The notes under the pieces: generated by a model
The model's input: the letters and a program-made list of their open reading frames with translations, nothing else
The model's database searches: none
What the model was told of the DNA's origin: nothing
Assembly (NCBI GenBank): GCA_001817215.1
Contig: MHHX01000007.1
Coordinates: 24,244-60,575, forward strand
Source: Candidatus Brennerbacteria bacterium RIFOXYC1_FULL_41_11
Lineage (GTDB): Bacteria > Patescibacteriota > Minisyncoccia > UBA6257 > Brennerbacteraceae
Direction of reading: 5' to 3'
Length of the DNA stretch: 36,332 bases
Program-made: the position numbers and the translations under genes
In this document: positions 228 to 27,496 of the stretch, piece by piece
How the letters are laid out: each line of letters opens with the position of its first letter
Numbering within the stretch: the stretch's first letter is position 1

Positions 228-1247
228 TTATTCTGCCAGGCCAAGGCTGATCTTTTTCTCTTTTTTGTCGATTTCAAGAATTTTGAACTGATAAGTGTTT
301 TCAACCGCGATCTCCTTGTCCTCACAGATGCCGAAGATGTAATCGTCAAGACCTACCAGGGCACCGAGCTGTGTTTGTTTGATGACCCGGCCGGGATAAG
401 CTTTCCCCTTTTTGTATTTTGATTCGATCTCATCCCAAGGATTTTGTTTGTACGGCTTGAGTGACAGAAATATTCTGCCATGGGCAATATTGATGATTTT
501 AGCCTTAGTTTTATCGCCAACTTTTAGGTATTGTGATGGATCGTCGACCAACTTGTGATCAATTTCTGAGATATGGATCAATCCTTCTAGGGTTGGTTCG
601 CCAAATTTAATAAATGCGCCGAATGGTGCTAGTCCGGTGATCTCGCCCTCAATCTCGCCTCCGACATTGTAGCTTGAAAGAAGGTCTTGAAGCTTCTCGC
701 TCTCGGCTTCTTTTTCGGAAAAGATCAGCTTGCCGTCTTGTTGATTGAAATCAAGGATTCTGACCTTTACTTCTTTACCGACAAGTTTTTTGAGTTCATC
801 AAGTATTCTGACCCTGTTTCCGCCCTCAACTCTTGGATAGTGTTCGGTCGCCAGTTGAGATACCGGCAAGAAACCTTCAATTCTTTCGAACTGCATTAAT
901 AATCCGCCTTGGTTGGCGCCGATAATATTTAAACTCAAAATCTCGCGCAGGTCTCTTGCCTGACGAATTTTTTCCCAACCAGCTTCTTTATCCGCTTGGT
1001 TCAGGGACAGTTCCCAAAAATTATTTTCATCGGTTGGACCAATGATTTTAACTGCGATCTCGTCCCCGGGGCTCAGATTTTTGATTTTGTCGGCAGAGAA
1101 AAGATATTCTCGGCCAAGAATAATACCGGTGCCGATATCGCCAAGGTCGATGAAAACCCGACGAGGTTCTTTTTTCAGAACCTGGCCCTGGGTGATTGCG
1201 CCGATATTGGCACGGCTTTTTTTGATGGCTTCAAGGATTTGCTGCAT
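228..1247 (-). CDS. rpsA: Ribosomal protein S1-like protein (about 4 S1 domains, short form)
   Basis: Repeated S1 motifs: GGLLMQFERIEGFLPVSQL, GEITGLAPFGAFIKF..EGLIHISEI, LSLKP...NPW. Confidence 0.85.
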   Translation of the reverse strand: MQQILEAIKKSRANIGAITQGQVLKKEPRRVFIDLGDIGTGIILGREYLFSADKIKNLSPGDEIAVKIIGPTDENNFWELSLNQADKEAGWEKIRQARDLREILSLNIIGANQGGLLMQFERIEGFLPVSQLATEHYPRVEGGNRVRILDELKKLVGKEVKVRILDFNQQDGKLIFSEKEAESEKLQDLLSSYNVGGEIEGEITGLAPFGAFIKFGEPTLEGLIHISEIDHKLVDDPSQYLKVGDKTKAKIINIAHGRIFLSLKPYKQNPWDEIESKYKKGKAYPGRVIKQTQLGALVGLDDYIFGICEDKEIAVENTYQFKILEIDKKEKKISLGLAE

Positions 1248-24374: not shown

Positions 24375-26153
24375 TTACCTTACTTTTTCGTTTATTTCTT
24401 GTTTTAGTTTTTCAATCAATTGATTAATCTTCATTGCTCCCATGTCTTTTTGATTGTGGGCGCGTAGAGCCACTGATTCTGATTCGATCTCTCTATCGCC
24501 AATGACGGCCATATATGGAATTTTTTTCATCTCTGCATTTCTGATTCTTTTGGAAACAGATTCGTCGGGCCAAAGCTCGACGCGGATATTATTGTTTTTC
24601 AGCTGTTTTTGCAGATCCTCGGCGGCTTTTTGGTGTTTTTCGCCTAAAGGCATGACCACGATCTGGATCGGCGAAAGCCAAAGAGGGAAGGCTCCGGCAT
24701 AATGTTCAATCAAGATCATTAAAAATCTTTCTGGCGAGCCGACGATGGCGCGGTGGAGCATGATTGGTGTTTTTTCCTTGCCATCTTTATCCGCATAGAC
24801 CAGACCGAATCTTTGTGGTTGGACATAATCAATCTGAACAGTCGAGAGCTGGTGTTCTCTGTTAAGCGCATCCGTCGCAATCAAATCCATTTTTGGCGCG
24901 TAAAAAGCTGCTTCTCCCGGTCCATCGAAATACTCGATTTTGTTTCTTTTCATTATTTCCTCGGCCCATTTTTCAACTTTATCCCATGTTTTTGGATCGC
25001 CGAGATATTTTTCCGGATGTTTTGGGTCTCGGGTTGATAAACGGTATTTGTATTTTAAACCGAAAGTGGCCATGATCTGTTTTGTCATCTCCAATGCCAC
25101 ATCGATCTCATTGTCAACTTGATCTTCGCGGCAGAAAATATGGCAGTCATCTTGTGAAAAAGAACGGACTCGAGCGAGCCCGGAAAGTTCACCTGGTTTT
25201 TCGTCGCGGTAAAGCATGGCAAAGTCTGTGTATCTCAAAGGTAGGTCCCGATAGCTCCTTGGTCTTGAAGCATAGATCTGGGTATGTTGAGGACAGTTCA
25301 TTGGTTTCAAAAAAAACTCTTCTTCTGAATAGTTCGAAATGACCCTGAACATAGAGTCTTTGTATTTGTCGTAGTGCCCGGAGATTTTGAAAAGGTCAGC
25401 TTTGGCCACCTGCGGAGTCCATACCTGGGTGTAGTCTTGTTTCACCTGGGTCTCTTCGACATATTCATTAACCAAACGCCTGATTAATGTTCCGGCTGGA
25501 GTGTAGAGCGGGAATCCAGAGCCAACGAGATCCGAGAAGGTGAATAAATCCAGCTCTTTCCCAAGCTTTCTGTGGTCGCGTTTTTTCGCTTCTTCAATGT
25601 TATGCAGATAATCTTCAAGCTCTTTTTTTGCCGGGAAGCAAGTGCCATAGATTCTGGTCAACATTTTATTTTTTTCATCTCCGTGCCAATAGGCTCCGGC
25701 TAAAGACAAAAGTTTAAAAGCTTTGATCTCGCCGGTTGATTTGGCGTGCGGACCGGAACAAAGGTCTGTATCTTTATCACTCATGTGGAAAACTGAGACT
25801 TTTTCGCCGCGTTTTTGTATGTCTTCAATCCACTCAAGTTTGTAGGGATTATTTTTGAATATTTTTTTGGCATCTTCGGCAGAGATGGTTTCTTGGGTCA
25901 TAGGCAGGTCGGCAGAAATCAGTTGTTGCATCTCTTTTTCAATCTTCGGAAAATCGTCTTCAGTAACTTTCGAGTCTGAGTCGAAATCAAAGTAAAATCC
26001 GTCTTCGGTTGCGGGGCCCATAGCTTTTTTTAGTTTTGGGTAAATGTTTTGCATGGCAGTGTGCAAAACATGTTCGGCCGTGTGGCGTAAAGACCACAGT
26101 GCCCGCTCTTTTTCAGAGAGTTTTTCAAGTTTTTCGTCCAAAATTTGCGACAT
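24375..26153 (-). CDS. thrS: Threonine--tRNA ligase (no N-terminal TGS domain)
   Basis: RHTAEHV and DLCSGPH (editing domain), RDHRKLG, LKPMNCPQH, YRDEKPG, AAFYAPK, HRAIVGSPERF, C-terminal anticodon-binding domain. Confidence 0.97.
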   Translation of the reverse strand: MSQILDEKLEKLSEKERALWSLRHTAEHVLHTAMQNIYPKLKKAMGPATEDGFYFDFDSDSKVTEDDFPKIEKEMQQLISADLPMTQETISAEDAKKIFKNNPYKLEWIEDIQKRGEKVSVFHMSDKDTDLCSGPHAKSTGEIKAFKLLSLAGAYWHGDEKNKMLTRIYGTCFPAKKELEDYLHNIEEAKKRDHRKLGKELDLFTFSDLVGSGFPLYTPAGTLIRRLVNEYVEETQVKQDYTQVWTPQVAKADLFKISGHYDKYKDSMFRVISNYSEEEFFLKPMNCPQHTQIYASRPRSYRDLPLRYTDFAMLYRDEKPGELSGLARVRSFSQDDCHIFCREDQVDNEIDVALEMTKQIMATFGLKYKYRLSTRDPKHPEKYLGDPKTWDKVEKWAEEIMKRNKIEYFDGPGEAAFYAPKMDLIATDALNREHQLSTVQIDYVQPQRFGLVYADKDGKEKTPIMLHRAIVGSPERFLMILIEHYAGAFPLWLSPIQIVVMPLGEKHQKAAEDLQKQLKNNNIRVELWPDESVSKRIRNAEMKKIPYMAVIGDREIESESVALRAHNQKDMGAMKINQLIEKLKQEINEKVR

Positions 26154-26222
26154 AGTTTTTTATTTCACCGAAGTTCGTTAAATGACGAACAAGGGCGGAT
26201 TGTTTATTTTAGCTTAATTAAT

Positions 26223-26249
26223 AAAAAATTGCTCCCTTTCGAGAGCAAT
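26223..26249 (-). terminator. Attenuator terminator upstream of thrS
   Basis: Minus strand ATTGCTC-tcgaaagg-GAGCAAT-TTTTT. Confidence 0.8.
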
Positions 26250-26287
26250 CATCAACACCAACAACTACGCCTCGAAAGAGAAAATCC

Positions 26288-26320
26288 TTAAGAAGCAGTT
26301 GTTGTGGTTAATTGTTGCAT
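26288..26320 (-). CDS. Thr-rich leader peptide MQQLTTTTAS of a thrS attenuator
   Basis: Minus strand ATG CAA CAA TTA ACC ACA ACA ACT GCT TCT TAA. Four tandem Thr codons directly upstream of thrS. Confidence 0.8.
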   Translation of the reverse strand: MQQLTTTTAS

Positions 26321-26326
26321 GGGTTT

Positions 26327-26354
26327 ATTTTAGTTTGTTTCGATAATTTGTCAA
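26327..26354 (-). promoter_or_regulatory. Sigma70 promoter of the thrS leader
   Basis: Minus strand TTGACA-16-TAAAAT, 6 nt, then the leader ATG. Confidence 0.75.
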
Positions 26355-26452
26355 CTAAGATTTATTTAGTTGAACCACGTTTGACGTGGTCAATCAATCT
26401 TTATTTTATTTTGTTTTTAAGGTAAATTGTAGTTATTCTTAATTTTATTACC

Positions 26453-26524
26453 CCCCCCGTAGCTTAGCGGTAAAGCAATTGCCTCTTAAGCAAGTGACCG
26501 AAGGTTCGAATCCTTCCGGGGGGA
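26453..26524 (+). tRNA. tRNA-Lys(CTT)
   Basis: Acceptor ccccccg/cgggggg, anticodon loop ct-CTT-aa, T arm gaagg-ttcgaat-ccttc. CCA not encoded. Confidence 0.93.
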
Positions 26525-26591
26525 CACTTCGGCAAGCTTAGTGTAAACAAAAAATAAACCGCTTTGTTTTTTCTGAAATCGTTGTATTATT

Positions 26592-26882
26592 TTGTTATCG
26601 GGTTTAAGTTTCTCACGAAAGGAGGTGAGTGTAAAAAACAGCTTCAGCCCAAATTTAATGCCGGGAAGTCGAGTCAGGATCGTGGAGATCTCCGGCTGCC
26701 AAGACCTTGCTGGTCTGGAACGATCGGTCAGGGGTTATGGTCTTGGCATTGGTAAAACTGGCAGCATCTGTGTTGTGGCACAGATCTGGGATGATGGTTG
26801 GGTAGCTATCATCACCCCAGAAAACTCTGGTTACCCCAACCAGAAACTGGCCCTACCCAAAAGTTGTTTGGAGGTGGTATGA
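26592..26882 (+). CDS. Small hypothetical protein, possibly SH3/KOW-like (start uncertain)
   Basis: PGSRVRIV..beta-rich ORF followed by a terminator. The strong AAGGAGGTG near 26619 has no well-spaced canonical start codon. Confidence 0.45.
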   Translation: MLSGLSFSRKEVSVKNSFSPNLMPGSRVRIVEISGCQDLAGLERSVRGYGLGIGKTGSICVVAQIWDDGWVAIITPENSGYPNQKLALPKSCLEVV

Positions 26883-27184: not shown

Positions 27185-27496
27185 TTATTGCAGAATATTG
27201 GACACAACAGCAGGAATGGCCTTAGCGAAGATTGCTATTAAAACACCGGCGGCAGCGAAGATGATCATTCTATTGGCTTCTTGAACAGTCTCTTGTTTTC
27301 CAGCGGCAGTGACATACTTAAAGCCGGCATAGATAATAAAGGCAACAGCCATGATGATCAGGAAAGTGAACACGACATTAAAAACCTGATAAATTTTGTC
27401 TTCCAGCTGCTGGACCGTTGTCACGTTAATAAACTCTGCTGATACTGGCAGTGCTAAGACCAAGGCTAACAAGCTAAAACCGAGAATTTTTTTCAT
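27185..27496 (-). CDS. VirB2/TrbC-like pilin
   Basis: Signal peptide, then two hydrophobic helices with IIYAGFKYVTAAG..QEANRMIIFAAAG, the CPR pilin pattern. Confidence 0.85.
   Translation of the reverse strand: MKKILGFSLLALVLALPVSAEFINVTTVQQLEDKIYQVFNVVFTFLIIMAVAFIIYAGFKYVTAAGKQETVQEANRMIIFAAAGVLIAIFAKAIPAVVSNILQ

Follow-up and report, generated by a model that had tools for sequence, protein, structure and literature searches.

A probable leader-peptide attenuator of compact, putatively leaderless design before thrS in a Candidatus Brennerbacteria genome

The CPR/Patescibacteria are host-dependent cells that do not synthesize amino acids themselves, and to our knowledge almost nothing is known of how they regulate their genes. 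How would such a cell match the production of an aminoacyl-tRNA synthetase to the supply of its amino acid? The question is raised by a short element before thrS in Candidatus Brennerbacteria bacterium RIFOXYC1_FULL_41_11, in which a ten-codon open reading frame (ORF) with four consecutive threonine codons lies between a promoter-like sequence and an intrinsic terminator. Here, we report an analysis of this element within a 36,332-nt stretch of the genome (contig MHHX01000007.1, positions 24,244 to 60,575; hereafter the window, to which thrS coordinates refer). We consider it probable that the element is a ribosome-mediated (leader-peptide) transcription attenuator controlling thrS. This reading is based on the sequence elements, their predicted energetics, and their recurrence both in relatives and at trpS and pheS of the same genome. 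From these we infer where transcription starts, that the ORF is translated, that ribosome and polymerase are coupled, and that the switch responds to threonine.

Anatomy of the thrS leader

The features of the locus are as follows.

26349..26354, minus strand: -35 hexamer TTGACA (with the -10 hexamer, 11 of 12 consensus matches)
26327..26332, minus strand: -10 hexamer TAAAAT, 16-nt spacer to the -35 hexamer, ATG 6 nt farther on
26288..26320, minus strand: leader ORF MQQLTTTTAS with ATG at 26320 and stop codon TAA (26290-26288)
26297..26308, minus strand: Thr codons ACC ACA ACA ACT in tandem, where the ribosome is proposed to stall
26251..26312, minus strand: helix 1 of the minimum-energy fold, 26312-26295 paired with 26268-26251, enclosing the antiterminator arm
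26270..26289, minus strand: antiterminator 5' arm, pairing with 26244-26224, a segment made up of the terminator loop, 3' arm, and U-tract
26223..26250, minus strand: intrinsic terminator, a 10-bp stem with GAAA loop (26250-26227) and T6 (26228-26223)
26173..26190, minus strand: small hairpin of 5 bp, 3' of the terminator and ahead of the thrS start codon
24375..26153, minus strand: thrS, threonine--tRNA ligase, 592 amino acids

The main elements had been described in an initial annotation made from the letters alone, and they were recovered here at the same positions: the promoter-like TTGACA-16-TAAAAT followed after 6 nt by ATG, the decapeptide frame read at 26320-26288 with its ACC ACA ACA ACT run, and the terminator, resolved here as 10 pairs with a GAAA loop and T6 ending at 26223. 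The gene that follows was confirmed as thrS by TIGR00418 (687 bits, E 2e-206; cut-off, 384 bits), its ATG lying 70 nt beyond the terminator. Helix 1, proposed as 26304-26295 paired with 26268-26259, is present and is lengthened by the minimum-energy fold. For helix 2, the complementarity of 26280-26271 to the terminator 5' arm and loop holds, but its extent had to be revised, the predicted antiterminator being longer (26289-26270 paired with 26244-26224).

Because the promoter fills the space before the leader ORF, no Shine-Dalgarno sequence is possible there, and because only 6 nt separate the -10 hexamer from the ATG, transcription is predicted to start on or next to its A; the mini-ORF would then be leaderless. 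The nearest upstream gene is a divergent tRNA-Lys (26453-26525, plus strand), so the terminator is not the end of an upstream co-directional gene. No ORF of 60 amino acids or more overlaps the leader element on either strand. A search of 25900-26800 with Rfam models (cmscan, E up to 10) returned the tRNA and weak unrelated matches only, with no covariance-model match to Thr_leader or other curated leader families and none to the T-box model RF00230. By itself, the promoter-like match before the leader is not significant, since a pattern scan of a 4-kb region gave 7 such matches, with 6.7 expected (chance level). Contigs from four DNA sequencing runs were identical and showed no natural variants.

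Three further observations were made around the element. A weak TAAAAT, read by eye 3' of the terminator (26211-26206), might act as an additional promoter and so bypass the switch. A perfect 7-3-7 inverted repeat (ACCACGT CAA ACGTGGT, 26374-26390) separates the leader promoter from the divergent tRNA-Lys, just 5' of the -35 box; it may be bound by a protein or may serve as a bidirectional element. A 103-amino-acid ORF (27185-27496, minus strand) has a sub-threshold match to a pilin-like conjugal transfer family (NF045849, 32 bits; cut-off, 40).

Predicted switching and the genomic setting

As an RNA, the 108-nt leader is predicted to fold with -38.4 kcal/mol, compared with -19.1 ± 3.3 kcal/mol for 200 dinucleotide shuffles (z = -5.9; 0/200 as stable). 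Constrained folds were computed with a mask that spanned the A-site codon, everything 5' of it, and the next 12 nt, a ribosome footprint assumed from general knowledge of ribosome protection. In this series, the free leader formed helix 1 and the terminator (-38.4 kcal/mol), and helix 1 was predicted only when the leader was untranslated. With the ribosome on Thr codons 1 to 4, the long antiterminator formed instead (-26.5 to -23.9 kcal/mol), with 0/10 terminator pairs left; 26289-26270 paired with 26244-26224 around an inner hairpin of 26268-26245. With the ribosome at the stop codon, the terminator returned (-18.1 kcal/mol); since the stop codon already contains the first bases of the antiterminator 5' arm, a terminating ribosome would cover that arm. 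When the sequence between ribosome mask and terminator was shuffled with its mononucleotide content kept, the terminator was lost under the stalled mask in just 9/300 cases. Masking the Thr codons, a comparison that the initial annotation had called for, thus exchanges terminator for antiterminator, and the ribosome-dependent logic that it had proposed is borne out in the folds. In silico, an antiterminator mutually exclusive with the terminator is predicted to depend on ribosome position.

The proposed mechanism would run as follows. Transcription would start at the ATG itself or a few bases from it, so that the message carrying the 10-codon ORF would be leaderless, or nearly so, when translated. 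As long as Thr-tRNA(Thr) is abundant, the ribosome would reach the stop codon and cover the antiterminator 5' arm; the 10-bp terminator would form, and RNA polymerase would halt at its U-tract, with thrS still 70 nt away. Once charged tRNA(Thr) runs low, the ribosome would stall on the four Thr codons, blocking helix 1 and leaving the arm free to pair with the terminator loop, 3' arm, and U-tract, and the polymerase would proceed into thrS. Were the leader not translated at all, helix 1 would sequester the antiterminator arm and the terminator would form.

The genome assembly comprises 608 kb in 22 contigs and is 96.5% complete. Neither thrC nor homoserine dehydrogenase was found in it, which is consistent with threonine auxotrophy. 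Shine-Dalgarno-like motifs before genes showed no enrichment (41/584, with 40 in shuffles; crude gene calls), and a -10-like hexamer 5 to 8 nt before starts occurred at twice the shuffled frequency (65/584 versus 29; the same crude calls). These counts fit, and hint at, routine leaderless or Shine-Dalgarno-independent initiation across the genome.

The whole genome (608 kb) was scanned for a short ORF with an amino acid run, followed by a terminator and then a co-directional gene. Nine distinct places were found, of which only two had a Thr run, the thrS leader among them; two of the nine, at thrS and pheS, precede the cognate synthetase gene. A trpS leader came from another scan, which covered 49 terminators that precede genes. 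The initial annotation had proposed looking at other synthetase genes in related genomes; in the genome itself, trpS and pheS were found to have cognate-codon leaders, and proS a T-box match.

Contig C6, locus L032, approximately 360-505, plus strand: trpS leader MNSILKFWWRTIVKNLWQ, before trpS (L032 529-1548)
Contig C6, locus L031, approximately 1326-1210, minus strand: Phe-rich pheS leader MNKFFNFFFFIFRIASGR with a strong terminator, before pheS (L031 163-1203, minus strand)
Contig C22, locus L113, 1501-1663, minus strand: T-box match at proS, full-length and sub-threshold (RF00230, 37.8 bits, E 1.8e-7; gathering score, 93 bits)

The trpS leader has leaderless geometry (TTGAAA-16-TATAAT-6 nt-ATG, then a terminator), and its constrained fold gives an antiterminator with the ribosome on the WW codons. 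A homologous peptide, MNKTLKNWFWLTVKRSWRKS, precedes trpS in the same-family genome G002 (L116), and none was seen at the other 26 trpS loci examined. The pheS leader does not have leaderless geometry: a 94-amino-acid ORF stops 2 nt before its ATG, which overlaps a -10-like hexamer. Phe-rich leaders were present before pheS in two of three close relatives, G006 (L146) and G002 (L148), and the pheS terminator of this genome and of G006 persisted in every constrained fold. This genome seems to mix T-box and leader-peptide control of its synthetase genes.

A second T-box match (contig C19, 21.8 bits) was rejected because it sits in a tRNA cluster. Twelve further synthetase genes (class I, four; Lys, Asp/Asn, Pro, Ser/Gly-type, Tyr, Glu, Cys, and Ala) had no convincing cognate leader, apart from the proS T-box and a leuS-like hairpin; the search of the genome gave no ArgRS, and a contig end truncates HisRS. 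At the leuS-like gene (contig C6; class I, 874 amino acids), a long hairpin with a T-run stands immediately before the start codon, and its 5' arm holds the end of a 26-amino-acid ORF, Leu-Leu-Ser-stop, a candidate Leu-sensing leader.

Threonine leaders and T-box-like RNAs before thrS in relatives

Loci of thrS were collected from 61 genomes (own genome and 60 relatives; 30 loci), from genome contigs (80 loci), and from metagenome contigs (80 loci). Relatives by ThrRS similarity include Candidatus Collierbacteria, Woesebacteria, and Shapirobacteria, which places the organism among the Patescibacteria/CPR. Five truncated loci, two whose upstream DNA was short, and one duplicate were removed, leaving set 1 with 102 unique 450-nt upstream regions; set 2 (metagenome) contributed 49 new unique regions after removal of 10 short and 3 truncated loci and 18 duplicates. 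A Thr run was scored in ORFs of 4 to 40 amino acids with at least 3 consecutive Thr or at least 4 in 6.

This census, which had been suggested as a check on the thrS leader, found a sense-strand Thr-run ORF in 15 of the 102 set 1 regions and an antisense one in a single region, whereas 200 mononucleotide shuffles averaged 3.15 and did not exceed 8 (related loci are not independent). Sense and antisense counts for runs of other amino acids in the same set were 17/26 for Leu, 14/13 for Ser, and 11/6 for Lys, and no amino acid other than Thr showed a comparable sense excess in these 102 regions. In set 2, Thr-run ORFs were found 2 times in sense and once in antisense among 49 regions.

Ten set 1 leaders lie within 230 nt of thrS (L001, which is the window's own locus, L003, L015, L034, L040, L047, L068, L076, L099, and L110), and set 2 has one such proximal leader (L220), so that a proximal Thr leader occurs in only about 11 of the 151 unique regions of both sets. 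Their peptides include MQKFTTTTTTTATPLYRQWF, MFFQVLTTTTISP, MKMQFRTTTTTIIPE, and MKLIALNSTTTTIRQ. The nucleotide sequences cannot be aligned and the distribution is patchy; terminators are present, and the common layout runs from a -10 box and start codon through the Thr run to a stop codon adjoining the antiterminator arm, with the terminator last. In 8/10 proximal leaders, a -10 hexamer (at least 5/6 matches, with A2 and T6) ends 6 to 10 nt before the start codon, against a background of 36/950 start codons (3.8%). The start codon is GTG in three proximal leaders; GTG is unfavorable for leaderless initiation.

Eight leaders were folded. In six, the terminator was lost with the ribosome on the second Thr codon and regained at the stop codon, behavior that recurred in 2 to 19 of 300 spacer shuffles per locus (mononucleotide; related loci not independent); the other two, L034 and L220, had no predicted antiterminator. 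The regulatory codons and the layout thus appear to be kept in relatives. No close relative with the window's leader sequence was found, the nearest thrS with upstream DNA being 57% identical. A 77%-identical thrS (G005; L002 = L042) ends at a contig edge, as does L027; the same-genus genome G001 gave no thrS match, and the metagenome scan gave no thrS closer than approximately 70% identity.

Homologous Thr-run mini-ORFs, for example MKKLVQYTTTTRSYFVRRCVRG, were also seen 350 to 450 nt before thrS at L095, L096, and L106, where they are followed by a hairpin, GGAGG, an ORF of approximately 80 amino acids, and thrS. At L106, the mini-ORF begins directly after a T-box-like terminator, and this locus may carry two sensors in tandem.

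A second kind of leader was found in many relatives. An rTGGAACCrC motif, preceded by a stem-loop with invariant ACC-A and followed by a U-tract, occurred in 21/103 set 1 and 14/49 set 2 regions. The loci include L033, L035, L036, L038, L041, L043, L044, L067, L071, L087, L093, L175, L184, L185, L190-L193, L200, L202, and L211, among others. This group takes in most of the closest ThrRS relatives (65 to 70% identity), and the metagenome thrS loci of approximately 70% identity mostly have a leader of this kind. The RNA is approximately 140 nt long and lies 60 to 280 nt before thrS. RNAalifold on 20 such loci gave 25 pairs, 18 with compensatory changes, and a bulged helix with invariant UGGAACC, which we take to be the T-box antiterminator design. 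RF00230 scored 20.6 bits for one of these RNAs, gave nothing for another, and gave nothing at an E value of 0.01 or less for six loci. Since Rfam support is weak, we call the RNAs T-box-like and claim no family membership. RF00230 matches at an E value of 1e-4 or less were found in 5 of the 61 genomes, none of them next to their thrS loci. By eye, the helix on the U-tract side encloses the bulged helix and does not compete with it, presumably a departure from classical T-boxes. A UGGNACC-type motif is absent upstream of the window's thrS, and L001 is not among the matches.

Alternatives, precedents, and meaning

An alternative that keeps the threonine attenuator and gives up its leaderless start would place the transcription start farther upstream, or a few bases before the ATG, with initiation independent of a Shine-Dalgarno sequence. 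Shine-Dalgarno motifs are not enriched in the genome (41/584 versus 40), so internal initiation without such a motif must be common; moreover, the -10 hexamer ends 8 to 10 nt before the start codon in four relatives, which would imply a leader of 2 to 4 nt, and the pheS leader ATG, 2 nt past an upstream ORF stop, sits on a -10-like hexamer. We nevertheless regard this alternative as unlikely: the exact arrangement of -10 hexamer, 6 nt, and ATG is found in the window, at L003, L034, and L040, before trpS in the own genome and G002, and before pheS in G002; the pattern scan found no further promoter-like site from 26354 to the divergent tRNA; and -10-like hexamers 5 to 8 nt before gene starts are twice as frequent as in shuffles (65 versus 29 of 584). 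It would be very unlikely, in our estimate, for the mini-ORF to be a chance frame in front of an ordinary terminator or insulator, with thrS transcribed from a promoter 3' of the terminator and the Thr codons sensing nothing. Promoter- and terminator-like matches do occur near the chance rate in this AT-rich region, the TAAAAT at 26211-26206 does lie past the terminator, and the majority of relatives have no Thr leader. Against this stand the sense excess of Thr runs (15 versus 1; shuffle maximum, 8), the ribosome-position-dependent antiterminator in six of eight leaders and rarely in shuffles, the cognate leaders that trpS and pheS of this genome also have, and the want of any co-directional upstream gene needing termination.

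Extremely low probability is assigned to a switch that binds tRNA or protein (T-box-type, or resembling the E. coli ThrRS operator) in place of a ribosome sensor. It could draw on the ACC-loop T-box-like RNAs before thrS in many relatives and on the proS T-box match (37.8 bits) in the same genome, yet Rfam finds no T-box or other cis-regulatory match in 25900-26800 at E values up to 10 apart from weak chance matches, the window's thrS has no UGGNACC-type motif upstream, and the loop of the 26173-26190 hairpin does not look like a tRNA-Thr anticodon loop. That the terminated transcript of approximately 100 nt, or the decapeptide, acts in trans is to us the least probable of these readings. The attenuator-derived RNA rnTrpL of Sinorhizobium is a reported precedent (PMC6614838), and the terminated RNA is strongly structured; but neither peptide nor RNA sequence is conserved, the Thr run and layout alone being retained, and any activity in trans would come on top of the function in cis without replacing it. 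The cis-acting leader-peptide attenuator is therefore the reading followed below.

Among known systems, enterobacterial thrL is alike in its run of Thr codons within a short ORF, its competing hairpins, and its intrinsic terminator. Its peptide (Enterobacteria; Rfam Thr_leader) is longer, with Thr mixed with Ile, and it governs the biosynthetic thrABC operon, which the window's genome appears to lack. The E. coli thrS operator likewise provides feedback control of thrS through the 5' leader, but there ThrRS binds tRNA-like hairpins at the ribosome-binding site, with no terminator and no leader ORF. T-boxes of thrS (in Firmicutes, and the T-box-like RNAs of the relatives) share the gene, the tRNA-Thr charging signal, and the terminator output; they sense tRNA directly and need no translation, whereas neither a T-box motif nor an Rfam T-box match is present in the window element. 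The E. coli pheM leader is translated from a Shine-Dalgarno site and concerns another amino acid, whereas in the window the promoter abuts the start codon.

Several precedents come from the literature. PMC1262725 cites the pheM-pheST attenuator of E. coli and predicts classical attenuators before trpS and leuS in Streptomyces. These resemble the present element in using cognate codons for leader-peptide attenuation of a synthetase gene, and the trpS and pheS leaders described above are analogous to them. PMC2965389 mentions E. coli thrS autorepression and documents exchange between T-box and leader peptide for the same gene in other phyla. Closest is Streptomyces lividans TK24, for which PMC8079986 annotates a leaderless thrL before thrS from RNA-seq and lists further leaderless leaders before leuS, trpS, and alaS. 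The S. lividans thrL is likewise a short leaderless ORF with Thr codons directly before thrS and is read there as an attenuator; it has 18 amino acids and two Thr codons, and its authors found no U-rich terminator. In the window element, by contrast, four Thr codons stand in tandem, the terminator is of textbook form, and the predicted antiterminator is clear; the two belong to different phyla and have no sequence relation. The supposition that such a device had not been described in Patescibacteria stands, in that our literature search found no Patescibacteria/CPR report of leader-peptide attenuation or of T-boxes; the idea itself has a precedent in the leaderless thrL of S. lividans (PMC8079986).

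Leader-peptide attenuators of synthetase genes are thus already known, and the present one would add a little-studied lineage and an unusually compact, clean, leaderless design. If the thrS switch works as predicted, it would imply transcription-translation coupling in CPR cells and an attenuator driven by leaderless translation. Leader peptides and T-box-like RNAs before thrS in close relatives offer a natural system for studies of sensor replacement.

More tentatively, and with rather less than even confidence, we suggest that the synthetase genes of Microgenomates-type CPR bacteria carry a patchwork of interchangeable tRNA-charging sensors that appear to have been swapped repeatedly within the class. 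One type would be the leaderless leader peptide, with a promoter abutting the start codon and a sensor of approximately 100 nt, before thrS, trpS, and pheS; the other would be the miniature T-box-like RNA with its ACC loop and UGGAACC bulge. At some loci of Woesebacteria or Gottesmanbacteria type, the two may be stacked in tandem. If this patchwork is real, 70S initiation on a 5'-terminal AUG would be quick enough for coupling to RNA polymerase, leader-peptide attenuators would arise easily de novo, and amino acid sensing would have been kept in cells that make no amino acids. A charging-sensitive thrS, and apparently trpS, pheS, and proS, would mean that these minimal cells gauge their amino acids gene by gene.
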